A DNA stretch of 15,008 bases, from IMG/VR virus record IMGVR_UViG_2703718837_000004. One strand, given 5' to 3'. Below are positions 1-15,008 of this stretch, piece after piece. Made by a program: the position numbers and the translations under genes. A model generated the notes under the pieces. It had not been told where the DNA came from and ran no database searches. It was given only the letters and a program-made list of their open reading frames with translations. The DNA comes from a virus. Its lineage: Duplodnaviria; Heunggongvirae; Uroviricota; Caudoviricetes. How positions within the stretch are numbered: position 1 is the first letter of the stretch; each line of letters starts with the position of its first letter.

Positions 1-318
1 ATGAAAAAGATAGCTGCTATATCATTAATTAGTATTTTTCTTATATCTGGTTGTGCTGTGCATAATGATGAAACAAGTATCGGTAAATTTGGTCTTGCAT
101 ATAAAAGTAATATTCAGCGTAAACTCGATAACCAATACTACACCGAAGCCGAAGCTTCTTTAGCCAGGGGTAGAATATCTGGTGCAGAAAATATAGTAAA
201 AAATGATGCAGCCCATTTCTGTGTTACTCAGGGCAAAAAAATGCAGATAGTTGACCTGAAGACAGAAGGTGCAGGATTACATGGCGTCGCTCGTCTGACA
301 TTCAAATGTGGAGAGTGA
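1..318 (+). CDS. yegR: Small lipoprotein (105 aa), chromosomal flank of the prophage site
   Basis: Complete ORF with an N-terminal signal peptide and lipobox (…FLISGC, Cys18). Size and position next to a P2-type attachment locus opposite yegQ match E. coli yegR as recalled from the K-12 map; symbol not verified by search. Confidence 0.6.
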   Translation: MKKIAAISLISIFLISGCAVHNDETSIGKFGLAYKSNIQRKLDNQYYTEAEASLARGRISGAENIVKNDAAHFCVTQGKKMQIVDLKTEGAGLHGVARLTFKCGE

Positions 319-477
319 GAATATTTTTTGGTAAGCGTCAAATATGCGCGTTCTGGCTGTGCGTAGCCGGAACCTGTGGGAGCACGATGCCGATAAGTGA
401 AAGGCATCGTGCTATGAAGGAGGATTCTATCGATGTGGTCAATGGAAGACGGTTACCAGAGATAGGGCTTATGCATA

Positions 478-497
478 AAAAAATAAGCCCGTGTAAG
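478..497. repeat. Partial att core (20 nt, aaaaaataagcccgtgtaag), left copy
   Basis: Exact 20-nt direct repeat of 13476-13495. The sequences diverge after ...gtaag (cag here, gga at the right copy). Matches the first 20 nt of the 27-nt P2 att core as recalled. Confidence 0.75.
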
Positions 498-1836
498 CAG
501 TGCGACCAACAGCACGTCTGAAACGCTCGCCGCAACACCAAAAGCTGTTAAGACGGTAATGGATGAAGCGAACAAAAAAGCGCCATTAAACAGCCCTGCA
601 CTGACCGGAACGCCAACGACGCCAACTGCGCGACAGGGAACGAATAATACTCAGATCGCAAACACGGCTTTCGTTATGGCCGCGATTGCCGCCATTGTAG
701 ACTCGTCGCCTGACGCACTGAATACGCTGAACGAGCTGGCGGCGGCGCTGGGCAATGACCCGAATTTTGCTACCTCCATGACTAATGCGCTTGCGGGTAA
801 GCAACCGAAAGATGCCACTCTGACGGCGCTGGCGGGGCTTGCTACTGCGGCAGACAGCTTTCCGTATTTTACGGGGAATGATGTTGCCAGTTTGGCAACC
901 CTGACAAAAGTCGGGCGGGATATTCTGGCTAAAGCGACCATTGCTGCCGTTATCGAATACCTCGGTTTGCAGGAAACGGTAAACAGGGCCAGGAACGCGG
1001 TGCAAAAGAATGGCGATACCTTGTCCGGCGGGATTACTTTTGAAAACGACTCAATCCTTGCCTGGATTCGAAATACTGACTGGGCGAAGATTGGATTTAA
1101 AAATGATGCCGATGGTGACGCTGATTCATACATGTGGTTTGAAACGGGGGATAACGGCAATGAATATTTCAAATGGAGAAGCCGCCAGAGTACCACAACA
1201 AAAGACCTGATGACGCTGAAATGGGATGCACTAAATATTCTTGTTAATGCCGTCATTAATGGCTGTCTTGGAGTTGGTACGACGAATGCACTAGGTGGTA
1301 GCTCTATTGTCCTTGGTGATAATGATACCGGATTTAAACAGAATGGAGACGGTATTCTTGATGTTTATGCTAACAGTCAGCGTGTATTCCGTTTTCAGAA
1401 TGGAGTGGCTATTGCTTTTAAAAATATTCAGGCAGGGGATAGTAAAAAGTTCTCGCTATCCAGCTCTAACACATCCACGAAGAATATTACCTTTAATTTA
1501 TGGGGTGCTTCCAACCGTCCAGTGGTTGCAGAGTTAGGCGATGAGTCCGGATGGCATTTCTATAGCCAGCGAAATACAGATAACTCGGTAATATTTGCTG
1601 TTAACGGTCAGATGCAACCCAGCAACTGGGGGAATTTTGATTCCCGCTATGTGAAAGATGTTCGCCTGGGTACGCGAGTTGTTCAATTGATGGCGCGAGG
1701 TGGTCGTTATGAAAAAGCCGGACACACGATTACCGGATTAAGAATCATTGGTGAAGTAGATGGCGATGATGAGGCCATCTTCAGGCCGATACAAAAATAC
1801 ATCAATGGCACATGGTATAACGTTGCGCAGGTGTAA
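496..1836 (+). pseudogene. H: Tail fiber protein H, 5'-truncated fragment (C-terminal ~2/3 of a P2 H-like protein)
   Basis: Reading frame opens straight out of the att core. Translation from 496 reads SSATNSTSETLAATPKAVKTVMDEANKKAPLNSPALTGTPTTP…, which is a mid-protein tail fiber repeat, and continues to …INGTWYNVAQV with stop at 1834-1836. No N-terminal baseplate-attachment region and no native start or RBS; the ORF-track start at 559 is an internal Met. Confidence 0.8.
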
Positions 1837-1839
1837 GTA

Positions 1840-2367
1840 ATGCAGCATTTAAAGAACATTAAGTCAGGTAATCCAAAAACAAAAGAGCAATATCAGCTAA
1901 CAAAGAATTTTGATGTTATCTGGTTATGGTCCGAAGACGGAAAAAACTGGTATGAGGAAGTAAGTAATTTTCAGCCAGACACAATAAAGATTGTTTACGA
2001 TGAAAATAATATTATTGTCGCCATCACCAGAGATGCTTCAACGCTTAATCCTGAAGGTTTTAGCGTCGTTGAGGTTCCTGATATTACTGCCAACCGGCGT
2101 GCTGATGACTCAGGTAAATGGATGTTTAAGGATGGTGCCGTGATTAAGCGGATTTATACGGCAGACGAACAGCAGAAACTAGCGGAATTACATAAGGCAG
2201 CTTTGCTTTCCGAAGCTGAATCCGTAATTTTGCCGCTGGAGCGCGCTGTCAGGCTGAATATGGCAACAGGTGAGGAGCGCAGTCGACTGGATGCATGGGA
2301 ACGCTACAGCGTTCTGGTCAGTCGTGTGGACCCTTCAAATCCTGAATGGCCGGACATGCCGCAATAA
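1840..2367 (+). CDS. G: Tail fiber assembly chaperone (P2 gpG-like, 175 aa)
   Basis: ATG 4 nt after the H stop with an AGGTG RBS. Length and sequence ([10 protein letters not shown]…EWPDMPQ) match P2 G as recalled; position immediately downstream of H is conserved. Confidence 0.9.
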
Positions 2368-2751
2368 GTTGTATGATCTCTGGAGTGAGCTAACGTATCT
2401 ATGGTACAGAGTAAAGCCTAATCTGACAGTCCGCTCCGAGTCAACAGCGGGAGTTGGAGTGCCAGATACTATCTAAAAGTTGATGGTTTCTTTTGTAGGG
2501 ATACCTACAGGCGCATTTGCACTTGAACAGTCAGAAGAACTCGACGAGACCGGCGTCGGCCAGAAAATGGCGAAGCCCGCATTTTCTACGACCGTTTGCA
2601 GGAACACTCTTGGATGTTACGTATAATAGTATGGTAGACCAGAATGACCGACAGCTTAGTGCTCAGACGGTGTAAAAAGGGAACGTTGCTAACGTTAATT
2701 TGTGTGATTAGTTGAAGGAATACTTATGCTGGTAACTATTTTTACTATTAA

Positions 2752-2769
2752 GGCCCTTGCTTTAGGGCC
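2752..2769 (-). terminator. Weak candidate terminator downstream of the RT gene
   Basis: Hairpin GGCCC-N8-GGGCC lying about 20 nt past the RT stop; on the minus strand it is followed by a moderately U-rich tract (UUAAUAGUAAAAAUAG). Confidence 0.3.
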
Positions 2770-2789
2770 AAAACATTAACTTTCTAAGG

Positions 2790-3887
2790 CTAGGGTTTTA
2801 GCAGTGCATTAGAAATTTCATCAATAATCACTGAGTATTTGGTGATTTCGTTTTCGTGAAAACATCTGAATTTATCATTAAATTTTACTAATGATATTAA
2901 ATATGAACGATAACCAGCTAACTTATTAGAGAATTGTGAATTATAAAAATCCGTTACAAACTGATCTGCATTGTTATTATACTTGACAGTTGGTGATTTA
3001 ACAGAAAATACTTTTTTGCAAATATGCTCTTTAGAATATCCCTTTTTAAATTTATCTAGTGCTTTCCGTATTAAATACATTTTTCCATTAGATATTCTTA
3101 TACTCCCTCTCTCTCCCCCTCCATTTTTATTTTCTATTACATAGCCGTTTAGTGAGATTATGCCTTTCTTAAATATTTTTTTATGTTTGTTGAGGGACAG
3201 TCCTGCCGTATTGACAATAGTTGATATCTCGTTGTCAAAATGTTCACTTCCAAGAAGTTTGTCTTTCCCGGAGCTCGAAAAAAGCATATCATCAGCATAA
3301 CGAGTGTAAATGATGCTTCTTTTGTCACACAAACTTTTAATTAAAATATCTAACTTTCTGAAAATTATATTGGATATGAAAGGTGATGTGGCGAATCCCA
3401 TTGGAAATATTTTTTTCTTTTTATTGTTGACTACAATCTCAATAGATAAACTATTTAAAAATGCATCAATAACTTTGATTTTTTTATTTACCAGATATTC
3501 ATCTTCAAAGTAGGATTTGAAACACTCCCTTGCAAAGTTATAGTTTATGTTATGAAAAAAATTACATAAGTCAATTCGACAAAAGTTCTCACCATGGATA
3601 TGAGGTTCTAGAAAATTCAAATAGTTTAATTTTTTACGATAGGCAATTGCAGGTGAGCTAAGAGGAACTTTTACTAGGAAATTTTTTATAAGTCTTTCTT
3701 GTATTTTTTTATGCGGGGAGCTTTTTCTTATAGTGAAACATAATCTATTCTTTAATGAAATGCTTTTATAATCGTCATTGGAAATCTCAGGGACTCCGTG
3801 AGTCATAATAATATCATCGGAGAATGTTTCTCTTAGATAAAAATTTTTATAAAAATCATTGTTAATTTTATTAATTTTATGTTTCAT
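2790..3887 (-). CDS. Reverse transcriptase (defence-associated type; retron-like or Abi-P2-like), 365 aa
   Basis: RT motifs readable in the translation: motif A …CRIDLCNFFHNI, motif B …FPMGFATSPFISNIIF, motif C …YTRYADDMLF (YADD). AGGAAG RBS 7-8 nt upstream of the ATG. Same strand as, and 120 nt downstream of, the OLD-like gene. Confidence 0.8.
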   Translation of the reverse strand: MKHKINKINNDFYKNFYLRETFSDDIIMTHGVPEISNDDYKSISLKNRLCFTIRKSSPHKKIQERLIKNFLVKVPLSSPAIAYRKKLNYLNFLEPHIHGENFCRIDLCNFFHNINYNFARECFKSYFEDEYLVNKKIKVIDAFLNSLSIEIVVNNKKKKIFPMGFATSPFISNIIFRKLDILIKSLCDKRSIIYTRYADDMLFSSSGKDKLLGSEHFDNEISTIVNTAGLSLNKHKKIFKKGIISLNGYVIENKNGGGERGSIRISNGKMYLIRKALDKFKKGYSKEHICKKVFSVKSPTVKYNNNADQFVTDFYNSQFSNKLAGYRSYLISLVKFNDKFRCFHENEITKYSVIIDEISNALLKP

Positions 3888-3893
3888 GTAAAA

Positions 3894-4043
3894 GCTTCCT
3901 CTTCGATACCAATAACATCTTTACACCCCGTGAGGCTTAAAGCGGCTTAGCGGACGCAAGACAATCCGAGCTAGTGTTTGCTGGAGCAAGTGACGGCATG
4001 CGTCAGCTCATTTGAGCCCTCCAGCTTCTATCGAAGAAGAAGC
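3894..4043 (-). ncRNA. Candidate structured ncRNA (retron msr-msd-like) bracketed by a 15-nt inverted repeat
   Basis: Arms at 3894-3908 (gcttcctcttcgata) and 4029-4043 (tatcgaagaagaagc). In the minus-strand transcript they pair over 15 positions (14 Watson-Crick plus one G.U); on the plus strand that position would be a C.A mismatch. Nested stems: gctggag 3980-3986 with ctccagc 4019-4025, and tgacg 3991-3995 with cgtca 4001-4005. Local G+C is clearly higher than in the flanking AT-rich genes. The distal arm sits immediately 5' of the RT start and contains its RBS; the proximal arm overlaps the last codons of the ATPase gene. Confidence 0.3.
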
Positions 4044-6272
4044 ATGATCGATGATATGCGAAATTTCAGGAAAAGCCAAGCGGAATTTTTTTTCGACATT
4101 TTCTTTATCTAGGGCTGAATAATGATTAAGGCTAAAATCAATGAAGCTTGTAACCCATCCAGAAGTCTTTCCTATGTAAGAACTCATAAAAGAGAAATTT
4201 TCTGACTTTAATGCTTTGATATAATCCAATATATCTTGCCGTATCGGTTTTTGATCAATTTTATAATGCATTTCTATACTTACAAGAGTTTCTGTTTTGC
4301 CACTAAAAATAAGGCGCAAGATAGCAACTTGGTCTTTTACGTCGGGGATGGTTTTTTTAAACTCATCAATTATTTCTTTAGCATATCTAATTTTAATGAT
4401 TTTCAATAATCTCATGTGTCGCAATGGTAGGTTATGATTTGTTTCACATTTTGAAAGTATTTTGGGAAAAAGTTGTTTTGATTGGGTTTTAATATCGTAT
4501 TTTTGCAGCAGAGCATTAATCATTTTTACAGGGTTTTTATTATTTACATTAAAGCTTCTCATTACTATGTCAATGATCCATAAAGAGAATGTCTCTAAAG
4601 AGAATTCATTGATCAATGAGCCTTCTATCGTTGTAGAAGTATAATAAACATTATCTTTAGAGGATAAAAAATTAACTGCGCTTATAACTCTGCCTATACT
4701 GAAGTGTCTGAATTTTAGGCCATTTTCACTGAATGTTACTTTCCTTTCATCTTGGCTTAAAAGAAATTTTGCTGCGTTAAGAAAAGGTTTTTGGTATGTC
4801 GAAAAATAGTGTAGTTTATCTCTCTTAATGATTTTATTAATAATTGATTTCCCTTTCGAATTAAATTTAAATTGTTCATGTTCGAAGTCAACAACGGCAA
4901 TCTGATCAATATCCTTTACTACTAGAAATGGGATGGCTGCATTTGAGTAGCTGGGGTTTATATTTTTCAACATTACTTCATCGCAATCATACACATCTAA
5001 CCTTTTAAGTACTGGAAACAGCTTTTGCAGATTATAATTTCTAAACAATTCAACTTCTGTGGCGCCCTCTACAAATAGAATGTATTCACTAAAGAATAGA
5101 CGGGCCTCATTATCGCTAAGCATATTTATAAATCTAATGTCATTATATTTAGAGTTTAATTTTGAAATTTTGGTCGAGTTGTCACGTTCTTTTGAAAAAT
5201 GCAAAACCTGCTGTTTATGTAAGAAAGATTTTAGCGTGAGTTTTAGTAAACTCGGAGAATGAGTGCTAAATATAAGAGTTGGATATGGTGTTGAATATTT
5301 TCCAGGCTCAATTTCCTCATGGGTTTTATCATACTTTTTATATGTCAGGCTTATGTTCTCAATAAAGTTCTCGCTAAGTTTTGGATGTAGCCCAATTTCA
5401 GGTTCATCAATATATATAATTGGATTGATAAATTCTGTTCTTGTTAATGAAATTAATAGGCTAAGTATAATTTCAAGATATTTGTGAGAGTTCGTGCCAT
5501 CCGACTGAACATGTAGTTCTTCACCTTTATTTATGAAAATATCGCCATCTAAAACTATTTTTAGATAATTAACGACTTTATCTTTATAGGTGTAAGGTTT
5601 AGTATGGATTACATTTTCAACTCTTTCTATATACTTCTTGTAACTACCCCGCTTAGTTGATATTTTCTCATTCAAAAACTCAAGGAGTTCTTCTTTTTTT
5701 ATTTCAGAGAAATTAAAGGAATTTATACTGCTGAGCATTTTCCATATGCTATTCCAGTCGTATAAGTCAATGTGTCTGGTTTCAATATGGAAAAAAGGAA
5801 ATAGAGTTTTAATTAGATGCCGGGCATTTGGTGTGCTAATTGACCAAGTTACGGAGTCATCTTTAGAAATTGTGAGTGTAATGCTATAAGTGCTTTTTCT
5901 TTGGAAACCCAAAGGAGATATGAAAGGAAGACAGAATTTCTGCGGCTTTCGGATGAATGATTGTGGCTTAAATAAAGTGTTATAAATATGCTTGTGAAAG
6001 CGACCATTGTTATTAGGGTTCATTACAATTCTCTTTATTCTTGTTACATCATAAGTCAATGTTATTGACCCTGAAGGAGTATAACTAGAATGAAAATCAG
6101 GAGGTATTACTTTTATGTCGTCAAGTTTGTCGTAAAAATATTTCAATATTTTCATAAGATTGGATTTGCCAACATTATTCATCCCTACAATGCAATTTAC
6201 ATCCTCTAGGGAATTTATTATTACATCATTAAATGATAGTAAGTTTTTTATTCTTATGCTTTGCAAACCCAT
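4008..6272 (-). CDS. OLD-family ABC-type ATPase / Toprim nuclease-like protein, 754 aa
   Basis: Walker A GMNNVGKS (aa 30-37), Walker B/D-loop IIYIDEPEIGLHP (aa ~285-297), H-loop FSTHSP (aa ~335-340). Toprim signature follows: ILFVEGATE (aa ~398-406) and FLVVKDIDQ (DxD, aa ~449-457). About 200 aa of C-terminal extension. RBS AAGGAA upstream of the ATG. Confidence 0.8.
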   Translation of the reverse strand: MGLQSIRIKNLLSFNDVIINSLEDVNCIVGMNNVGKSNLMKILKYFYDKLDDIKVIPPDFHSSYTPSGSITLTYDVTRIKRIVMNPNNNGRFHKHIYNTLFKPQSFIRKPQKFCLPFISPLGFQRKSTYSITLTISKDDSVTWSISTPNARHLIKTLFPFFHIETRHIDLYDWNSIWKMLSSINSFNFSEIKKEELLEFLNEKISTKRGSYKKYIERVENVIHTKPYTYKDKVVNYLKIVLDGDIFINKGEELHVQSDGTNSHKYLEIILSLLISLTRTEFINPIIYIDEPEIGLHPKLSENFIENISLTYKKYDKTHEEIEPGKYSTPYPTLIFSTHSPSLLKLTLKSFLHKQQVLHFSKERDNSTKISKLNSKYNDIRFINMLSDNEARLFFSEYILFVEGATEVELFRNYNLQKLFPVLKRLDVYDCDEVMLKNINPSYSNAAIPFLVVKDIDQIAVVDFEHEQFKFNSKGKSIINKIIKRDKLHYFSTYQKPFLNAAKFLLSQDERKVTFSENGLKFRHFSIGRVISAVNFLSSKDNVYYTSTTIEGSLINEFSLETFSLWIIDIVMRSFNVNNKNPVKMINALLQKYDIKTQSKQLFPKILSKCETNHNLPLRHMRLLKIIKIRYAKEIIDEFKKTIPDVKDQVAILRLIFSGKTETLVSIEMHYKIDQKPIRQDILDYIKALKSENFSFMSSYIGKTSGWVTSFIDFSLNHYSALDKENVEKKFRLAFPEISHIIDHASSSIEAGGLK

Positions 6273-6376
6273 GGGAGCGATTCCTTATAAAAATAAAACC
6301 TTGTATTCCTATAATTCGAGTGATGTCTCAACGGACTATTCGGAACAACTTTGGTTTATATAGCTCAAGTTTTTAT

Positions 6377-6400
6377 TCATTATTATGCATGTAATAATGA
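6377..6400. promoter_or_regulatory. Palindrome in the presumptive cargo promoter region (tcattatta-tgcatg-taataatga)
   Basis: Perfect 9-bp inverted repeat with a 6-bp spacer, 105-128 bp upstream of the ATPase start in AT-rich DNA. Operator-like; no cognate regulator gene is visible. Confidence 0.25.
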
Positions 6401-6648
6401 ATTACAAGTTTTCATTTTGCTTGGAATCAATTTTTTCACTCAGGTAAAGTAATTTTTGCGAGTGACTGTATGATACGGTCTCAATAGTATTAGAGCTTGA
6501 ATTCAGAATTGCAGTGATGCTCATTGTGCGGCTACTTTCACTGTATGCCATCCATGTCTGTTTCTCGCTCAAAGCAGGCTGTCAGATTTGATAGCGTTTT
6601 GGCTACGTATTTTGTCAGTTGGAAATTGAGAGAGTGCAAATCAAGGCT

Positions 6649-6675
6649 GGCGGGCTGATTGCCCGCCTTTTCTTT
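6649..6675 (+). terminator. Rho-independent terminator between the cargo island and the FI promoter region
   Basis: Stem GGCGGGC (6649-6655), loop tgatt, GCCCGCC (6661-6667), then TTTTCTTT. Would stop read-through from the H-G transcript before the F operon. Confidence 0.6.
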
Positions 6676-6771
6676 ATCTGTTGTTTCATCCACTGGCCAG
6701 CCAGGTCAAATAGCGTCTCATGCTCTGCACAACAGAAAATAGTTGCACCCATTAACCACGGAGTTAAACGG
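6676..6771 (+). promoter_or_regulatory. Presumptive late promoter region for the F operon (P_F-like)
   Basis: Placed by position only: between the terminator and the FI RBS (GGAG at 6761-6764). TGT triplets at 6679-6684 lie at roughly -55 if transcription starts about 30-40 nt upstream of FI, but an exact TGT-N12-ACA Ogr box is not present. Confidence 0.3.
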
Positions 6772-7962
6772 ATGAGTGACTATCATCATGGCGTGCAGGT
6801 GCTGGAGATTAACGACGGCACCCGCGTCATTTCCACCGTATCCACTGCCATTGTCGGCATGGTCTGCACGGCCAGCGATGCGGATGCGGAAACCTTCCCC
6901 CTCAATAAACCGGTGTTGATTACCAATGTGCAGAGCGCAATTGCAAAGGCCGGTAAAAAAGGCTCGCTGGCGGCATCGTTGCAGGCCATCGCCGACCAGT
7001 CAAAACCGGTCACCGTTGTCGTGCGTGTGGAAGACGGCACCGGCGACGACGAGGAAACGAAACTTGCGCAGACCGTTTCCAATATCATCGGCACCACCGA
7101 CGAAAACGGTCAGTACACCGGACTGAAAGCCCTGCTGGCGGCGGAGTCGGTAACCGGTGTTAAACCGCGTATTCTCGGTGTGCCGGGACTGGATACCAAA
7201 GAGGTGGCTGTTGCACTAGCATCCGTCTGTCAGAAGCTGCGCGCTTTCGGATATATCAGCGCATGGGGCTGTAAGACCATTTCCGAGGTGAAAGCCTACC
7301 GCCAGAATTTCAGCCAGCGTGAGCTGATGGTCATCTGGCCGGATTTCCTCGCATGGGATACGGTCACCAGTACCACCGCCACCGCGTATGCCACCGCCCG
7401 TGCGCTGGGTCTGCGCGCTAAAATCGACCAGGAGCAGGGCTGGCATAAAACGCTGTCCAACGTCGGGGTAAACGGTGTTACCGGCATCAGCGCATCTGTA
7501 TTCTGGGATTTGCAGGAGTCCGGCACCGATGCTGACCTGTTGAACGAGTCTGGCGTCACAACGCTGATTCGCCGCGACGGTTTCCGCTTCTGGGGTAACC
7601 GTACCTGCTCTGATGACCCGCTGTTCCTCTTTGAAAACTACACCCGCACCGCGCAGGTGCTGGCCGACACGATGGCTGAGGCGCACATGTGGGCGGTGGA
7701 CAAGCCCATCACCGCAACGCTGATTCGCGACATCGTTGACGGCATCAATGCCAAATTCCGTGAGCTGAAAACAAACGGCTATATCGTGGATGCGACCTGC
7801 TGGTTCAGCGAAGAATCCAACGATGCGGAAACCCTCAAGGCCGGAAAACTGTATATCGACTACGACTATACCCCGGTGCCTCCTCTCGAAAACCTGACCC
7901 TGCGCCAGCGTATTACCGATAAATACCTGGCAAATCTGGTCACCTCGGTTAACAGCAATTAA
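6772..7962 (+). CDS. FI: Contractile tail sheath protein (P2 gpFI-like, 396 aa)
   Basis: Start set at ATG 6772 (MSDYHHGVQVLEIN…) with a GGAG RBS 7 nt upstream. The ORF-track start at 6619 would run through the upstream terminator. Sequence matches P2 FI as recalled. Confidence 0.9.
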   Translation: MSDYHHGVQVLEINDGTRVISTVSTAIVGMVCTASDADAETFPLNKPVLITNVQSAIAKAGKKGSLAASLQAIADQSKPVTVVVRVEDGTGDDEETKLAQTVSNIIGTTDENGQYTGLKALLAAESVTGVKPRILGVPGLDTKEVAVALASVCQKLRAFGYISAWGCKTISEVKAYRQNFSQRELMVIWPDFLAWDTVTSTTATAYATARALGLRAKIDQEQGWHKTLSNVGVNGVTGISASVFWDLQESGTDADLLNESGVTTLIRRDGFRFWGNRTCSDDPLFLFENYTRTAQVLADTMAEAHMWAVDKPITATLIRDIVDGINAKFRELKTNGYIVDATCWFSEESNDAETLKAGKLYIDYDYTPVPPLENLTLRQRITDKYLANLVTSVNSN

Positions 7963-7974
7963 GGAGCCTGACCG

Positions 7975-8493
7975 ATGGCAATGCCGCGCAAACTCAAGTT
8001 AATGAACGTCTTTCTGAACGGCTACAGCTATCAGGGCGTTGCAAAGTCCCTCACGCTACCAAAACTGACCCGTAAGCTCGAAAACTATCGCGGTGCGGGG
8101 ATGAACGGCAGCGCACCGGTAGACCTCGGCCTTGATGACGATGCGCTGTCAATGGAGTGGTCGCTCGGTGGCTTCCCGGATTCGGTTATCTGGGAGCTTT
8201 ACGCAGCAACCGGCGTGGATGCCGTGCCGATTCGTTTTGCTGGCTCTTACCAGCGCGACGATACCGGCGAAACGGTTGCCGTCGAAGTGGTCATGCGTGG
8301 ACGTCAGAAAGAAATCGATACCGGCGAGGGTAAACAGGGAGAAGACACCGAGTCGAAAATCTCCGTGGTCTGTACCTATTTCCGGCTGACGATGGACGGT
8401 AAGGAGCTGGTCGAAATCGACACCATCAACATGATTGAGAAGGTGAACGGCGTCGACCGGCTGGAGCAACACCGCCGCAATATCGGCCTGTGA
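7975..8493 (+). CDS. FII: Tail tube protein (P2 gpFII-like, 172 aa)
   Basis: AGGAG RBS; MAMPRKLKLMNVFLNGYSYQGVAKS… matches P2 FII as recalled; conserved position after FI. Confidence 0.9.
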   Translation: MAMPRKLKLMNVFLNGYSYQGVAKSLTLPKLTRKLENYRGAGMNGSAPVDLGLDDDALSMEWSLGGFPDSVIWELYAATGVDAVPIRFAGSYQRDDTGETVAVEVVMRGRQKEIDTGEGKQGEDTESKISVVCTYFRLTMDGKELVEIDTINMIEKVNGVDRLEQHRRNIGL

Positions 8494-8549
8494 TTTTCAT
8501 CCGGTCAGCCTGGCTGACCGGTTAACCCTGATTCAGAAGTGAGAAAACC

Positions 8550-8825
8550 ATGAACAAAGAAAATGTGATTACCCTGGACAATCCGGTCAAACGTGGTGAG
8601 CAGGTTATCGAACAGGTCACGCTGATGAAACCCAGTGCCGGGACGCTGCGCGGTGTCAGTCTGGCTGCGGTCGCGAACTCCGAAGTCGATGCACTGATTA
8701 AGGTGCTGCCGCGCATGACTGCACCGATGCTGACCGAGCAGGAAGTCGCCGCACTGGAACTGCCTGACCTTGTGGCGCTGGCCGGTAAGGTGGTCGGTTT
8801 TTTGTCGCCGAACTCGGTGCAGTGA
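8550..8825 (+). CDS. E: Tail assembly chaperone E (P2 gpE-like, 91 aa)
   Basis: MNKENVITLDNPVKRGEQVIEQ…; GAGAAAACC upstream of the ATG. Contains the slippery heptamer near its 3' end. Confidence 0.85.
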   Translation: MNKENVITLDNPVKRGEQVIEQVTLMKPSAGTLRGVSLAAVANSEVDALIKVLPRMTAPMLTEQEVAALELPDLVALAGKVVGFLSPNSVQ

Positions 8826-8977
8826 CGTTCCCGAAAAATCTGTCGGTCGATGACCTGATGGCGGATGTGGCAGTGATATTTCACTGGCCGCCATCAGAAC
8901 TGTATCCCATGAGCCTGACCGAACTCATCACATGGCGCGAAAAGGCGCTCCGGCGAAGTGGAAGCACGAATGAGTAA
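8550..8977 (+). CDS. E': E+E' fusion chaperone produced by programmed -1 frameshift
   Basis: Slippery site T TTT TTG at 8798-8804 in E frame. The -1 frame continues from 8804 as VAELGAVTFPKNLSVDDLMADVAVIFHWPPSELYPMSLTELITWREKALRRSGSTNE to TAA at 8975-8977, overlapping the T start. Same arrangement as P2 E/E' and lambda G/GT. Confidence 0.7.
8798..8804 (+). other. -1 ribosomal frameshift slippery heptamer (T TTT TTG)
   Basis: X XXY YYZ motif in the E reading frame, followed by an open -1 frame of 57 codons. Confidence 0.7.
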
Positions 8978-11417
8978 CAATGTAAAATTACAGGTATTGC
9001 TCAGGGCTGTTGACCAGGCATCCCGCCCGTTTAAATCCATCCGTACAGCGAGCAGGTCGCTGTCGGGGGATATCCGGGAAACACAAAAATCACTGCGCGA
9101 GCTGAACGGTCACGCATCCCGTATTGAGGGATTCCGCAAGACCAGTGCACAGCTCGCCGTGACTGGTCATGCACTTGAAAAGGCACGGCAGGAAGCCGAA
9201 GCCCTTGCCACACAGTTTAAAAACACCGAACGTCCGACCCGTGCTCAGGCGAAAGTGCTGGAATCCGCAAAGCGTGCGGCGGAGGACTTACAGGCGAAAT
9301 ATAACCGCCTGACAGATTCCGTTAAACGCCAGCAGCGGGAACTGGCCGCTGTGGGAATTAATACCCGCAATCTTGCACATGATGAGCAGGGACTGAAAAA
9401 CCGTATCAGTGAAACCACCGCACAGCTTAACCGTCAGCGTGATGCGCTGGCGCGTGTCAGTGCGCAACAGGCAAAACTTAACGCAGTAAAACAGCGTTAT
9501 CAGGCCGGAAAGGAACTGGCCGGAAATATGGCCTCAGTGGGCGCTGCCGGTGTGGGGATTGCGGCGGCGGGAACGATGGCCGGTGTTAAGCTACTGATGC
9601 CCGGTTATGAGTTTGCGCAGAAAAACTCAGAATTGCAGGCCGTGCTAGGTGTGGCAAAAGACTCCGCCGAAATGGCCGCACTCCGCAAGCAGGCGCGCCA
9701 GCTCGGCGACAATACCGCCGCCTCGGCAGATGATGCAGCCGGTGCGCAGATTATTATTGCGAAAGCCGGTGGGGATGTTGATGCCATTCAGGCGGCAACG
9801 CCGGTCACGCTGAACATGGCGCTGGCGAACCGCCGCACGATGGAAGAAAACGCCGCCCTGTTGATGGGGATGAAATCCGCCTTTCAGCTTTCAAACGATA
9901 AGGTCGCTCATATCGGGGATGTTCTCTCCATGACGATGAACAAAACCGCCGCCGATTTTGACGGCATGAGCGATGCGCTGACCTATGCCGCACCTGTGGC
10001 AAAAAATGCCGGTGTCAGCATTGAAGAAACCGCCGCAATGGTCGGGGCGCTGCATGATGCAAAAATCACAGGCTCAATGGCGGGGACGGGAAGCCGTGCC
10101 GTGTTAAGCCGCCTGCAGGCACCGACGGGAAAAGCATGGGATGCACTGAAAGAGCTTGGTGTGAAAACCTCAGACAGCAAGGGAAACACCCGACCAATAT
10201 TTACCATTCTGAAAGAAATGCAGGCCAGTTTTGAGAAAAACCGGCTCGGTACTGCCCAGCAGGCTGAATACATGAAAACCATTTTCGGGGAGGAGGCCAG
10301 CTCAGCCGCCGCCGTGCTGATGACTGCCGCCTCAACCGGAAAGCTGGACAAACTGACCGCTGCGTTTAAAGCCTCAGACGGAAAGACCGCAGAGCTGGTT
10401 AAAATCATGCAGGATAACCTCGGCGGTGACTTTAAGGAGTTTCAGTCCGCTTATGAGGCGGTGGGGACAGACCTGTTTGACCAGCAGGAAGGCGCACTGC
10501 GTAAGCTCACTCAGACGGCCACAAAGTATGTGTTAAAACTCGACGGCTGGATACAGAAAAACAAATCACTGGCGTCAACCATCGGCCTCATTGTCGGTGG
10601 CGCACTGGCGCTGACTGGCATCATCGGTGCCATTGGTCTTGTAGCCTGGCCGGTTATCACCGGCATTAATGCCATCATCGCGGCAGCAGGCGCAATGGGG
10701 GCAATTTTCACGACGGTTGGCAGTGCTGTTATGACCGCCATCGGGGCGATTAGCTGGCCGGTTGTGGCCGTGGTGGCCGCCATTGTCGCCGGGGCGTTAC
10801 TTATCCGTAAATACTGGGAGCCTGTCAGCGCATTCTTTGGCGGTGTGGTGGAAGGGCTGAAAGCGGCATTTGCGCCGGTGGGGGAGCTGTTCACGCCACT
10901 GAAACCGGTGTTTGACTGGCTGGGCGAAAAGTTACAGGCTGCGTGGCAGTGGTTTAAAAACCTGATTGCCCCGGTCAAAGCCACTCAGGACACCCTGAAC
11001 AGTTGCCGTGACACGGGTGTCATGTTCGGGCAGGCACTGGCTGACGCGCTGATGCTGCCGCTTAATGCGTTCAACAAACTGCGCAGCGGTATTGACTGGG
11101 TACTGGAAAAACTCGGGGTTATCAACAAAGAGTCAGACACACTTGACCAGACCGCCGCAAGGACTCATGCCGCCACGTATGGCACCGGTGGTTATATTCC
11201 GGCGACCAGCTCTTATGCAGGTTATCAGGCTTATCAGCCGGTTACGGCACCGGCTGGCCGCTCTTATGTGGACCAGAGTAAAAACGAATATCACATCAGC
11301 CTGACGGGTGGTACTGCGCCGGGGACACAGCTTGACCGCCAGTTACAGGATGCGCTCGAAAAATACGAGCGGGATAAACGTGCGCGCGCCCGTGCCAGCA
11401 TGATGCATGACGGTTAA
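8970..11417 (+). CDS. T: Tail tape measure protein (P2 gpT-like, 815 aa)
   Basis: ATG at 8970 (MSNNVKLQVLLRAVDQ…) with a GGAAG RBS. The ORF-track start at 8958 is an in-frame upstream GTG. Long alanine/glycine-rich hydrophobic central segment typical of tape measure proteins. Confidence 0.85.
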   Translation: MSNNVKLQVLLRAVDQASRPFKSIRTASRSLSGDIRETQKSLRELNGHASRIEGFRKTSAQLAVTGHALEKARQEAEALATQFKNTERPTRAQAKVLESAKRAAEDLQAKYNRLTDSVKRQQRELAAVGINTRNLAHDEQGLKNRISETTAQLNRQRDALARVSAQQAKLNAVKQRYQAGKELAGNMASVGAAGVGIAAAGTMAGVKLLMPGYEFAQKNSELQAVLGVAKDSAEMAALRKQARQLGDNTAASADDAAGAQIIIAKAGGDVDAIQAATPVTLNMALANRRTMEENAALLMGMKSAFQLSNDKVAHIGDVLSMTMNKTAADFDGMSDALTYAAPVAKNAGVSIEETAAMVGALHDAKITGSMAGTGSRAVLSRLQAPTGKAWDALKELGVKTSDSKGNTRPIFTILKEMQASFEKNRLGTAQQAEYMKTIFGEEASSAAAVLMTAASTGKLDKLTAAFKASDGKTAELVKIMQDNLGGDFKEFQSAYEAVGTDLFDQQEGALRKLTQTATKYVLKLDGWIQKNKSLASTIGLIVGGALALTGIIGAIGLVAWPVITGINAIIAAAGAMGAIFTTVGSAVMTAIGAISWPVVAVVAAIVAGALLIRKYWEPVSAFFGGVVEGLKAAFAPVGELFTPLKPVFDWLGEKLQAAWQWFKNLIAPVKATQDTLNSCRDTGVMFGQALADALMLPLNAFNKLRSGIDWVLEKLGVINKESDTLDQTAARTHAATYGTGGYIPATSSYAGYQAYQPVTAPAGRSYVDQSKNEYHISLTGGTAPGTQLDRQLQDALEKYERDKRARARASMMHDG

Positions 11418-11431
11418 GGAGGTGACGAAAA

Positions 11432-11911
11432 ATGATGCTCGCGTTAGGTATGTTTGTTTTTATGCGCCAGACGCTGCCACACCAGACCATGCAGCGTGAA
11501 TCAGATTATCGCTGGCCGTCAAATTCCCGTATCGGTAAACGGGACGCTTTTCAGTTTCTCGGTGTGGGTGAGGAAAACATCACGCTGGCCGGTGTGCTTT
11601 ATCCCGAACTGACCGGCGGAAAGCTGACGATGACCACGCTCAGGATGATGGCAGAGGAAGGCCGGGCGTGGCCGTTGCTGGATGGCACCGGCATGATTTA
11701 CGGCATGTATGTCATCAGCAGGGTAAGTGAAACAGGGAGTATTTTCTTTGCAGACGGCACACCCCGGAAAATTGATTTTACGCTGTCGCTCACCCGCGTT
11801 GATGAATCACTGGCCGCGCTTTATGGCGATATCGGTAAACAGGCGGAATCGCTCATCGGTAAAGCTGGCAGTATGGCGACCAGATTCACGGGGATGACGG
11901 GGGCGGGATAA
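11432..11911 (+). CDS. U: Tail protein U (P2 gpU-like, 159 aa)
   Basis: AAGGAGG RBS 8 nt upstream; MMLALGMFVFMRQTLPHQ… matches P2 U as recalled. Confidence 0.9.
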   Translation: MMLALGMFVFMRQTLPHQTMQRESDYRWPSNSRIGKRDAFQFLGVGEENITLAGVLYPELTGGKLTMTTLRMMAEEGRAWPLLDGTGMIYGMYVISRVSETGSIFFADGTPRKIDFTLSLTRVDESLAALYGDIGKQAESLIGKAGSMATRFTGMTGAG

Positions 11912-13074
11912 TGCTGGATGCACTGACATTTGATGCAGGCAGTACGCTGACGCCGGATTACATGCTGATGCTCGACAGCAGGGATATTACCGGCAATATC
12001 AGCGACCGTCTGATGAGCATGACCCTGACGGATAACCGGGGCTTTGAGGCTGACCAGCTTGATATTGAACTGAACGATGCCGACGGGCAGGTCGGGCTAC
12101 CGGTTCGTGGCGCTGTCCTGACGGTGTATATCGGCTGGAAAGGTTTTGCCCTGGTATGCAAAGGGAAATTCACCGTTGATGAGGTTGAACACCGGGGCGC
12201 GCCGGATGTGGTCACCATCCGCGCCCGGAGTGCAGATTTTCGCGGGACGCTCAATTCCCGCCGGGAAGGCTCCTGGCATGACACCACACTCGGTGCGATT
12301 GTTGAAGCGATAGCCTCCCGTAACAGGCTGGAAGCCAGTGTCGCTCCGTCACTGGCCGGAATTAAAATCCCGCACATCGACCAGTCGCAGGAGTCTGATG
12401 CGAAATTCCTGACCCGTCTTGCAGAACGCAACGGCGGTGAGGTGTCGGTAAAAATGGGAAAACTGTTGTTTCTCAAAGCGGGGCAGGGGGTGACGGCCAG
12501 CGGTAAAAAAATCCCGCAGATTACCATCACCCGCAGCGACGGCGACCGTCATCATTTTGCGATTGCTGACCGTGGAGCTTACACCGGCGTAACGGCAAAG
12601 TGGTTACACACCAAAGACCCGAAGCCGCAAAAGCAGAAGGTAAAACTGAAACGCAAAAAGAAAGAAAAACACCTGCGCGCACTGGAGCACCCGAAAGCGA
12701 AACCGGTCACGCAGAAGAAAGCGCCAAAAGTACCGGAAGCGCGCGAAGGTGAATACATGGCCGGTGAGGCTGACAACGTTTTTGCCCTGACTACGGTATA
12801 TGCCACGAAAGCGCAGGCCATGCGCGCCGCTCAGGCGAAGTGGGATAAACTGCAACGGGGTGTGGCGGAGTTCTCCATCAGCCTGGCTACCGGTCGGGCA
12901 GATATTTACACGGAAACACCGGTTAAAGTGTCAGGCTTTAAGCGCGTCATAGACGAGCAGGACTGGACAATCACTAAGGTGACACATTTTCTGAATAATA
13001 GCGGCTTCACGACGTCCTTAGAGCTTGAGGTCAGGCTTTCTGATGTGGAGTACGAAACAGAAGATGATGAGTGA
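11911..13074 (+). CDS. D: Tail protein D (P2 gpD-like, 387 aa)
   Basis: Start overlaps the U stop (TAATG). Sequence matches P2 D as recalled. Contains a Lys-rich low-complexity segment (KPQKQKVKLKRKKKEKH…). Confidence 0.9.
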   Translation: MLDALTFDAGSTLTPDYMLMLDSRDITGNISDRLMSMTLTDNRGFEADQLDIELNDADGQVGLPVRGAVLTVYIGWKGFALVCKGKFTVDEVEHRGAPDVVTIRARSADFRGTLNSRREGSWHDTTLGAIVEAIASRNRLEASVAPSLAGIKIPHIDQSQESDAKFLTRLAERNGGEVSVKMGKLLFLKAGQGVTASGKKIPQITITRSDGDRHHFAIADRGAYTGVTAKWLHTKDPKPQKQKVKLKRKKKEKHLRALEHPKAKPVTQKKAPKVPEAREGEYMAGEADNVFALTTVYATKAQAMRAAQAKWDKLQRGVAEFSISLATGRADIYTETPVKVSGFKRVIDEQDWTITKVTHFLNNSGFTTSLELEVRLSDVEYETEDDE

Positions 13075-13155
13075 TGTTTTTATTTTATCTGTTTGTTTTA
13101 TAAGGATAAATTAACTAAAATGGCACCATCAATAAAACCGGAAGAGGTGCTCGCG

Positions 13156-13374
13156 ATGTTTCATTGTCCTTTATGCCAGCATGCCGCACATGCGCGTACA
13201 AGCCGCTATATCACTGACACGACAAAAGAGCGTTATCACCAGTGTCAGAACGTGAATTGCAGCGCCACGTTCATCACTTATGAGTCGGTACAGCGATACA
13301 TCGTGAAGCCGGGAGAAGTCCACGCCGTAAGGCCACACCCGTTGCCGTCAGGGCAGCAAATTATGTGGATGTAA
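13156..13374 (+). CDS. ogr: Late gene transcriptional activator Ogr (zinc-finger, 72 aa)
   Basis: MFHCPLCQHAAHARTSRYITDTTKERYHQCQNVNCSATF… with a CxxC…CxxxxC zinc-binding motif; matches P2 Ogr as recalled. The ORF-track start at 13093 is an upstream in-frame extension; AT-rich putative promoter at 13075-13125. Confidence 0.85.
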   Translation: MFHCPLCQHAAHARTSRYITDTTKERYHQCQNVNCSATFITYESVQRYIVKPGEVHAVRPHPLPSGQQIMWM

Positions 13375-13386
13375 TTACAAACAGAA

Positions 13387-13412
13387 AGCCCCTCAGTCGA
13401 GGGGCTTTTTTG
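13387..13412 (+). terminator. Rho-independent terminator downstream of ogr
   Basis: Stem AGCCCCTC (13387-13394), loop agtc, GAGGGGCT (13399-13406), then TTTTTTG. Confidence 0.6.
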
Positions 13413-13475
13413 TCGATGTGGTCAATGTGTGGACGTGACCAGAAATAAATCCTTTTATTTCAATTTGTTGTACGT

Positions 13476-13502
13476 AAAAAATAAGCCCGTGTAAGGGAGA
13501 TT
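13476..13502. repeat. att core (27 nt, aaaaaataagcccgtgtaagggagatt), right copy, overlapping the cyaR terminator
   Basis: Matches the P2 att core as recalled. The first 20 nt are repeated exactly at 478-497. Phage arm lies to the left, bacterial DNA (cyaR, yegQ) to the right. Confidence 0.75.
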
Positions 13503-13562
13503 ACACAGGCTAAGGAGGTGGTTCCTGGTACAGCTAGCATTTTATGGGTTATGTTTTTCAGC
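13476..13562 (-). ncRNA. cyaR: CyaR (RyeE) Hfq-dependent small RNA
   Basis: Minus-strand sequence GCUGAAAAACAUAACCCAUAAAAUGCUAGCUGUACCAGGAACCACCUCCUUAGCCUGUGUAAUCUCCCUUACACGGGCUUAUUUUUU matches the E. coli CyaR sequence as recalled. Includes the C/U-rich seed and a terminator hairpin plus U-tail whose 3' half is the att core. Confidence 0.7.
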
Positions 13563-13596
13563 GAAACGGATGATAACCTTAATAAATGCAGCTGTA

Positions 13597-13612
13597 TGTG
13601 ATCGGTTTCTAA
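13597..13612. promoter_or_regulatory. Putative CRP site and promoter of cyaR
   Basis: TGTGA-tcggtt-TCTAA (one good half-site) centred about 42 bp upstream of the inferred cyaR +1 at 13562. TATCAT -10 candidate at 13570-13575 on the minus strand. Consistent with CyaR being a CRP-activated class II promoter. Confidence 0.4.
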
Positions 13613-13646
13613 GAATTTTCCATCCGGGAAAAATAATCGAAATTAA

Positions 13647-15008
13647 TCACTTACCGTGGGGATTACGCGTGGTTTCCCCGGAGAAATTACGCATCAGCAG
13701 CGCGTAATTGAGCTCAAGATCCTGCGGGACCGGGAGCCACACAGTATAACCATCGCCTGGTGCTATCGGCATAGCTTCGCCTTTGGCGTTTTCCATGTGC
13801 TCAAGGGTAAAATTAATGTTGCCTTGCGGCGTCATCAGCTCAAGGCTGTCGCCAACGGAGAATTTATTTTTCACCGCTACCGCCGCGAGGTCCCCCTTGC
13901 GCTCACCGGTAAACTCACCAACAAACTGCTGGCGGTCAGAAACTGAATAACCGTATTCGTAGTTCTGATAATCGTCGTGAGTATGACGACGCAGGAAACC
14001 TTCGGTATAGCCACGATGCGCCAGACCTTCCAGAGTTTCCAGCAGGCTGGTATCGAACGGTTTTCCCGCAACGGCGTCATCGATAGCTTTGCGGTAAACC
14101 TGTGCGGTGCGTGCACAATAGTAGAAAGATTTGGTACGACCTTCGATTTTCAGCGAATGCACGCCCATTTTGGTCAGGCGTTCTACATGGGCGATGGCGC
14201 GCAGATCTTTCGAGTTCATGATGTAAGTGCCGTGCTCATCTTCAAACGCGGTCATATACTCGCCCGGACGCTGGGCCTCTTCGATCATAAACACTTTGTC
14301 GGTTGGTGCGCCGATACCCAGCGTCGGCTCAACATTTTGCACCGGAATCGGCTCGTACTTGTGTACGATGTTGCCAACATCATCTTCTTTCCCTTCCTGG
14401 ACGTTGTACTCCCAGCGGCAGGCGTTGGTGCAGGTGCCCTGGTTCGGGTCGCGCTTGTTGATATAGCCAGAGAGCAGGCAGCGACCGGAGTAGGCCATGC
14501 ACAGCGCGCCGTGAACGAAGATCTCGATCTCCATATCCGGCACCTGATTGCGGATCTCTTCAATCTCTTCCAGCGACAGCTCGCGAGAGAGGATCACGCG
14601 GGTCAGGCCCATTTGCTGCCAGAATTTCACCGTCGCCCAGTTCACGGCGTTAGCCTGCACCGAAAGGTGGATCGGCATTTCAGGGAAGTGCTCACGCACC
14701 AGCATAATCAGCCCTGGATCGGACATAATCAGCGCATCCGGCCCCATTTCCACCACCGGTTTCAGGTCACGGATAAAGGTTTTCAGCTTGGCGTTGTGCG
14801 GTGCAATGTTGACCACGACATAAAACTTTTTCCCCAGCGCGTGGGCTTCATTGATGCCGAGCTGAAGATTTTCGTGGTTGAATTCGTTGTTGCGCACACG
14901 CAGGGAATAACGCGGCTGGCCCGCATAAACAGCATCTGCGCCATAAGCGAAAGCGTAACGCATATTTTTCAGCGTTCCCGCCGGGGAAAGGAGTTCCGGT
15001 TTAAACAT
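13647..15008 (-). CDS. yegQ: U32-family peptidase-like protein YegQ (453 aa), complete
   Basis: Full ORF from ATG (15006-15008 on the minus strand) to stop. MFKPELLSPAGTLKNMRYAFAYGADAVYAGQPRYSLR… matches E. coli YegQ as recalled. Cys-rich region CMAYSGRCLLSGYINKRDPNQGTCTNACRW. Confidence 0.85.
   Translation of the reverse strand: MFKPELLSPAGTLKNMRYAFAYGADAVYAGQPRYSLRVRNNEFNHENLQLGINEAHALGKKFYVVVNIAPHNAKLKTFIRDLKPVVEMGPDALIMSDPGLIMLVREHFPEMPIHLSVQANAVNWATVKFWQQMGLTRVILSRELSLEEIEEIRNQVPDMEIEIFVHGALCMAYSGRCLLSGYINKRDPNQGTCTNACRWEYNVQEGKEDDVGNIVHKYEPIPVQNVEPTLGIGAPTDKVFMIEEAQRPGEYMTAFEDEHGTYIMNSKDLRAIAHVERLTKMGVHSLKIEGRTKSFYYCARTAQVYRKAIDDAVAGKPFDTSLLETLEGLAHRGYTEGFLRRHTHDDYQNYEYGYSVSDRQQFVGEFTGERKGDLAAVAVKNKFSVGDSLELMTPQGNINFTLEHMENAKGEAMPIAPGDGYTVWLPVPQDLELNYALLMRNFSGETTRNPHGK

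Follow-up and report, generated by a model that had tools for sequence, protein, structure and literature searches.

The window, by which we mean the whole analysed stretch of 15,008 nucleotides, covers the yegR / cyaR-yegQ locus of E. coli with a P2-like remnant sitting between the host genes (Table 1). The remnant shows the late-gene order of P2, H-G-(variable locus)-FI-FII-E-T-U-D-ogr beside an att site, and is 99.9% collinear with the prophage of strain UPEC85. The surviving parts are the truncated tail-fibre gene H', G, a type I-B (Eco8) retron, FI-FII-E-T-U-D, ogr, the P arm and an intact attR, as well as cyaR. The retron is of type I-B, with a clade I-B reverse transcriptase and an OLD-like ATPase-Toprim effector in one operon. 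At the start codon of the effector (6272) the GTG of UPEC85 is ATG in the window. Regarding the msr-msd RNA of the retron, no Rfam family except CyaR exceeded its gathering score in the window, including positions 2368-2789, 3888-4007 and 6273-6771.

Table 1. Features of the window, with coordinates, strand and the basis of the assignment.
Feature	Position	Strand	Basis or remark
yegR, left-flank host gene	1..318	+	100% identity to annotated yegR in NCTC9038 and FDN-24; Pfam YegR
Chromosomal spacer, yegR to att core	319..477		Present in empty sites
Truncated attL core, nt 1-20 of the 27-nt P2 core	478..497	+	494-497 = TAAG microhomology with H
H', tail-fibre gene without codons 1-179 of 625	496..1836	+	Pfam Gp34_trimer; UPEC85 comparison
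G, tail fibre assembly protein	1840..2367	+	Mapped UPEC85 annotation; Pfam Caudo_TAP
Retron reverse transcriptase, type I-B (Eco8 family)	2790..3887	-	PADLOC RT_I-B, E 2.7e-106; RefSeq annotation
Retron Eco8 effector, OLD-like ATPase-Toprim	4008..6272	-	PADLOC ATPase-Toprim_I-B, E 1.6e-210; RefSeq 'retron Eco8 family effector endonuclease'
Tail operon FI-FII-E/E'-T-U-D	6772..13074	+	UPEC85 annotation; without indel relative to UPEC85
FI	6772-7962	+	Tail operon member
FII	7975-8493	+	Tail operon member
E/E'	8550-8977	+	Tail operon member
T	8970-11417	+	Tail operon member
U	11432-11911	+	Tail operon member
D	11911-13074	+	Tail operon member
ogr, late-gene activator	13156..13374	+	UPEC85 ogrK annotation mapped to the window
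Phage P arm of attR	13375..13475	+	Int arm-type repeats ATGTGGTCAATGTGTGGACG at 13415-13434; consensus from PMC3448106
Complete 27-nt att core (attR)	13476..13502	+	Sequence
cyaR (ryeE) sRNA	13479..13564	-	Rfam RF00112, 100.7 bits, E 1.4e-19
yegQ/trhP, right-flank host gene	13647..15008	-	Annotation of matching genomes

The left end of the window is ordinary chromosomal DNA: positions 1-497, core included, are found in 5,397 of the 5,426 complete E. coli genomes (coverage of at least 80%). At the empty site of NCTC9038 this stretch continues directly into GGAGATT and cyaR. FDN-24 and UPEC85 carry an intact P2-like prophage here, for which attL reads ...AAAAAATAAGCCCGTGTAAGGGAGATT/TAGGGTGTCACC... 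(slashes in sequences mark breaks or junctions), followed by int. The sequences of the empty site and of the intact attL together define the 27-nt core and identify the left copy of the window as core nt 1-20. Since the core overlaps cyaR in the Rfam placement, it constitutes the terminator and 3' end of this sRNA. The window has the core at both ends, the left copy with 20 of the 27 nt and with the P' arm lost, together with arm-type Int sites of the P2 consensus tgTGGaCa (PMC3448106), as expected for a P2 att site.

The chromosomal spacer carries a further P2-like trace. Positions 425-464 are 75% identical to positions 13408-13447 of the phage P arm, and within them TGTGGTCA at 433-440 represents an arm-type Int site. 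A 15-nt exact match between the chromosomal flank and the P arm (TCGATGTGGTCAATG) includes this site. The resemblance of the flank to the P arm is seen even at 'empty' sites, and the 25 nt adjoining the core occur in at least three versions among strains, and one of these (caatccttctttacagcttatgtac) likewise resembles the P arm. The 'empty' attB flank may thus itself be a scar of older P2 remnants. Some E. coli lineages have in addition a 169-nt AT-rich insertion, unrelated to P2, between the yegR stop codon and the conserved spacer. 'Empty' sites with a span of 732 nt were considered as small remnants and rejected, as their extra length is this non-phage insertion after yegR.

The 20-mer AAAAAATAAGCCCGTGTAAG occurs exactly twice in the window, at 478-497 and 13476-13495, while none was expected in 200 shuffles. 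A chance repeat was hence rejected as the source of 478-497, and the preliminary description was right in taking this sequence for an att-core copy. The right copy continues with GGAGATT to the full 27 nt and the left copy with CAGTGCGACC..., such that the core is indeed cut after ...gtaag where the right copy reads ggagatt. From there the sequence runs, as had been stated, straight into tail-fibre codons: it enters gene H at about codon 180 from 494/496, with a reading frame from 496 (...SSATNSTSETLAATPKAVKTVMDE...) that stops at 1836, and megablast matches to annotated 'phage tail protein' genes begin at window position 494. In agreement with the earlier account, gene lists and the coordinate map place no integrase, immunity, replication, head, lysis or baseplate gene between yegR and H'.

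Past the junction the translation of the H frame reads ...VSSATNSTSETLAATPKAVK.... This frame is open backwards only to a TAA at 484-486, inside the core, and its first in-frame start is the ATG at 559, which yields a 425-aa ORF. A host-side ORF (306-521) lies in a different frame from H. With no in-frame start upstream and the host ORF in another frame, the junction creates no protein fusion, and a translational fusion across it was rejected. The earlier wording of a 'frame-continuous' joint is therefore correct in the trivial sense that the frame is open across the junction, but it carries no biological weight. A promoter scan predicted neither a sigma-70-like promoter or terminator at the junction nor a promoter for H'.

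The phage that integrated at the cyaR/yegR att site was P2-like and carried a type I-B (Eco8) retron between G and FI. Its complete form is represented by the 33.4-kb prophage of UPEC85 (NZ_CM137000.1), in which int, C, cox, the replication genes, two cargo genes, Q, P, O, N, M, L, X and the holin/lysis genes are followed by R, S, V, W, J, I, H, G, the retron reverse transcriptase, the Eco8 effector and FI ... D, ogr. This genome aligns to window 494-15008 as a single piece, without gaps and with 17 mismatches (99.9% identity), and the retained 14.5 kb contain no indel relative to it. Thirteen of the 17 differences fall within 445 nt of the tape-measure gene T (10067-10511), which resembles a recombination patch. 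The gap relative to UPEC85 amounts to exactly 20,415 bp, from attL core nt 20/21 to codon 179/180 of the 625 codons of H. The missing stretch comprises core nt 21-27, the P' arm, int ... gene I and H codons 1-179. Thus int, C, cox, A, the cargo of the old/tin region, cos and the capsid, lysis and baseplate genes all lie within it, and the window does not hold a complete phage genome.

The parental attL reads ...CCCGTG[TAAG]GGAGATT and the parental H ...CTCAGT[TAAG]CAGTGCG, where brackets denote the shared 4 nt. Comparison with the same site in NCTC9038, FDN-24 and UPEC85 thus fixes both endpoints and the TAAG microhomology between them. The host flank of the window is 3% divergent from UPEC85 and identical to NCTC9038 and FDN-24. 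A flank unlike UPEC85 but like these two strains indicates the same phage in a different strain background, with the deletion later than the integration. Almost certainly, a single later deletion of about 20.4 kb joined attL core nt 18-20 to H codon 180 via TA(AG). One deletion from the attL core into H had been proposed before, and the single clean 20,415-bp gap with collinear sequence on both sides supports it. 'Just one random deletion' is nevertheless an incomplete account, because the core endpoint equals a break position that recurs in other P2 remnants (see below).

The element is a P2 remnant and not a prophage, which in itself is ordinary prophage decay. From its gene content it should be unable to excise, since int and cox as well as the P' arm and 7 nt of the core are gone and a half attL is left. 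It should likewise form neither particles nor tailocins, the capsid, lysis and baseplate genes being lost. In particular, an R-type tailocin was rejected, because the deletion took V, W, J, I and the lysis genes and left H incomplete. On excision and particles this agrees with the preliminary description, which had also noted correctly that the remnant keeps ogr (13156..13374) and defence cargo, the latter being the Eco8 retron (2790-6272).

The left endpoint of the deletion is not peculiar to the window. Four independent junctions with different partners have the same left end, right after core ...GTGTA. In the window (GTGTA/AGCAGTG) the partner is H. In the PR-X remnant of K-12 MG1655, core nt 1-18 are followed by the 3' part of D (...AAAAAATAAGCCCGTGTA/GCAGAGTTCTCC..., i.e. 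GTGTA/GCAGAG). The metagenome contig OERJ01000517.1 shows GTGTA/TCCGCGATGCC (GTGTA/TCCGCG) with gene I as partner, and IMGVR_UViG_2734482778_000014 shows GTGTA/CCCGCCCTTTGAG (GTGTA/CCCGCC) with a different tail-collar fibre gene, entered at about codon 330 of 919. Close intact relatives of three partners read ..CAGTTA/AGCAGTG (H), ..CCGTTA/TCCGCG (I) and ..CAGCTA/CCCGCC (fibre), such that all three have a TA just 5' of the break, which corresponds to core T17-A18. The intervals of possible breakpoints of the four junctions intersect only between 16/17 and 18/19, and all fit T17-A18/A19.

The latter two junctions came from a scan whose pattern consisted of the chromosomal flank with core nt 1-14, then six arbitrary bases and at nt 21 any base but G. 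As this pattern required a break within core nt 14-20, OERJ01000517.1 and IMGVR_UViG_2734482778_000014 demonstrate one position within 7 nt and not a clustering on the core; for the core rather than elsewhere as endpoint it is the window and K-12 that count. As a control, a matched pattern for breaks within the 7 nt that directly follow the core returned only SNP and 1-nt indel variants of the normal attL. The two scanned junctions are absent from the 5,426 complete E. coli genomes. A scan of genome contigs for ...GTGTA followed by a non-A gave 13 chance matches in unrelated taxa and two K-12-type junctions, with no new event. A survey of the yegR neighbourhood found only empty sites, intact lysogens and one IS-disrupted prophage.

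These and other remnants have features of their own. In IMGVR_UViG_2734482778_000014 the remnant runs from H' to D independently of that in the window. Its G-FI locus contains a Lamassu system (LmuA/LmuB plus a 234-aa gene; 2984-7347) and no retron, and at its junction the remainder of the fibre gene happens to fall into the frame of an ATG at 306, so that a mechanical ORF of 662 aa results (306-2294). The K-12-type core-to-D junction is found behind two versions of the flank, 7 A + ttaccagag and 6 A + taaccaggg (CP178308.1, CP178306.1), so that it is either old or its flank has been exchanged by recombination. A different P2 remnant on the Logan contig SRR25713566_282 (1-6368) encodes the same 425-aa H' product, with H cut about 5 nt before the ATG. 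There 171 nt separate H from the portal gene, in the place expected for the terminase and the head-to-baseplate genes, FI and D are fused (a 414-aa sheath-GPD product) and the G-FI locus holds a 269-aa gene; att is not involved in its internal P-to-H and FI-to-D deletions. The prophage that occupies the same site in CP026824.1 (4489-6460) has kept its attL core and P' arm intact, but a DDE_3 transposase stands in place of int to old, directly followed by portal and terminase genes, which represents an IS-associated route of decay.

Before a cause of the junction in the window is considered, two other origins have to be weighed. A collapse or mis-join during assembly at the repeated 20-27-nt core could be suspected, given that the core is repeated 13 kb apart and that the core-to-H junction of the window is absent from all 5,426 complete E. 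coli genomes of the RefSeq set. Yet an assembly error at this repeat should connect the core with sequence from the attR side or the P' arm and not with mid-H. Moreover, two other read sets yielded the identical junction: a 49.7-kb Logan contig of SRR11948938, which spans gatA to FI, is 100% identical to window 1-7836 with yegR and the junction included, and a Logan contig of ERR3469035, which begins 30 nt ahead of the junction, shows no difference over 7.4 kb. Since the two read sets were assembled independently, the junction is not an artefact of one assembly; we rejected this origin, the probability of which is negligible, and the doubt that the preliminary description had raised in this respect is settled. 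The truncated 425-aa H' product is known from five contigs. The present junction could also have arisen stepwise, by several deletions or recombination events in succession. The history of the locus is layered, with a P-arm-like relic in the chromosomal flank itself, and other remnants such as SRR25713566_282 carry multiple lesions. The junction is, however, collinear with parent-like sequences on both sides up to the same 4 nt and shows neither foreign nor scrambled bases, and indels are absent from the retained 14.5 kb, which makes such stepwise decay very improbable.

A more serious alternative is illegitimate recombination without Int, by replication slippage or microhomology end joining. 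It could be favoured by the upstream A-run and by a hairpin formed by GGGCTTAT and ATAAGCCC (8 bp, left arm 465-472, -6.8 kcal/mol, z -2.5). This hairpin extends as far as core nt 13, so that its end lies 5 nt upstream of the break, and could stimulate slippage. All junctions have 2-4 nt of microhomology and the partner sites are free of att-like sequence. For H, 10 of 27 positions match the core in a hand alignment where about 7 are expected, which does not qualify it as a secondary att site; H and the core have TA/TAAG in common together with a loose C-N-G-Y-T-A left half. A search of IMG/VR for reciprocal junctions, with the right half of the core retained (X/AGGGAGATT...), found none. P2 remnants also decay otherwise, as seen from the att-independent internal deletions of the related remnant SRR25713566_282 and from the IS in the int region of CP026824.1. 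On the other hand, slippage across 8-32 kb is rare, and a hairpin should scatter the endpoints according to the available microhomology, whereas the four independent events, each with a partner of its own, share one TA that lies 4-5 nt past the stem. Recombination without Int thus explains the common TA of the four events less well than Int does, and we regard it as rather unlikely.

A fixed endpoint inside a recombinase core together with varied non-att partners looks like a recombinase-initiated deletion. Selection should not fix the endpoint at this place, as a fragment of the attL core has no known function. The shared break position in the four remnants points to the phage integrase as the cause. 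In lysogens P2 int is co-transcribed with the C repressor, and Cox is absent there. Int-promoted deletions of lambda end at the att crossover point, and the 'eduction' deletions of P2 depend on int, as found in the 1970s. In the mechanism that we propose, P2 Int would be present in the lysogen without Cox, which is needed for proper excision, and would act on the attL core by cleavage or a single strand exchange at or near T17-A18/A19. The cleaved attL end would then be joined to a non-att partner with just 2-4 nt in common. Judged from the junction sequences, we lean towards such an Int-initiated step. The attB dyad is CCCGTGTAA-GGGAGA-TTACACAGG. On our reading, an overlap region from about nt 17-19 to about nt 25-27 would be consistent with the break position as well as with the identity of attP and attB, which ends at nt 27. 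No mapped cleavage positions of P2 Int were found in the literature searched.

Taken as a whole, the history of the locus was probably a single deletion of about 20.4 kb after integration, initiated by the P2 integrase at the attL core. A more general form of this idea, to which we give somewhat less than an even chance, is that P2-type Int, expressed constitutively without Cox, might repeatedly nick attL beside T17-A18 and join it to arbitrary prophage DNA, i.e. a one-directional 'self-amputation'. If so, the right-hand part of the prophage would become locked in, including the G-FI defence hot spot with the retron in the window and Lamassu in IMGVR_UViG_2734482778_000014. K-12 PR-X would be explained, and natural junctions would reveal where P2 Int cleaves in vivo.

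P2 remnants at this site (K-12 PR-X), the G-FI retron locus and the defence hot spots of P2 are already known. For the common breakpoint at A18 no description was found in the literature searched, which excluded the 1992 paper on the K-12 remnant. The remnant in the window accounts for the fixation of a retron defence system as a chromosomal locus. If the recurrent break holds, prophage domestication would here be driven in part by the phage's own integrase and not at random. Such events would have a signature, core ...GTGTA followed by non-att DNA (...CCCGTGTA/non-att), and a testable prediction for the cut position of P2 Int would follow. A position-specific endpoint would, if true, also bear on how defence-carrying halves of prophages become fixed.

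Among known systems, the variable G-FI locus of P2-like phages carries a reverse transcriptase/retron (Odegrip et al. 2006, PMC1367236, as cited in PMC9122126), and P2 and P4 have hot spots where antiviral systems are found (Rousset et al. 2022, PMC9122126). The retron of the window lies exactly at this G-FI locus. Both papers concern intact phages; in a word search the text of PMC9122126 contained none of 'remnant', 'degraded', 'cryptic' or 'defective'. The UPEC85 prophage resembles the window in the 99.9% identity over 494-15008, in the site and in the Eco8 retron at the G-FI variable locus, but has the full attL, int and all 33.4 kb and resides in another strain background.

With K-12 PR-X (yegZ/D', ogrK, attR, beside cyaR) the window shares the yegR ... 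cyaR-yegQ site, an intact attR and ogr, an attL cut inside the core (nt 18 compared with nt 18-20 in the window) and the loss of int, early and head genes. This cryptic P2 remnant was reportedly described by Barreiro and Haggard-Ljungquist in 1992. Unlike in the window, where the right end lies in H and about 13 kb with tail operon and retron are kept, the right end of PR-X lies in the 3' part of D and about 0.63 kb is left. The K-12-type junction occurs in 358 of the 5,426 complete genomes and that of the window in none. As the partners differ, H codon 180 in the window and D in K-12, the two represent independent deletion events. Deletion mutants of lambda and P2 'eduction' are similar to the window in that one endpoint is fixed in the att core while the other varies and has little similarity to att. 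In contrast to those laboratory isolates, deletions of the type seen in the window run inward through the prophage and are fixed natural variants.
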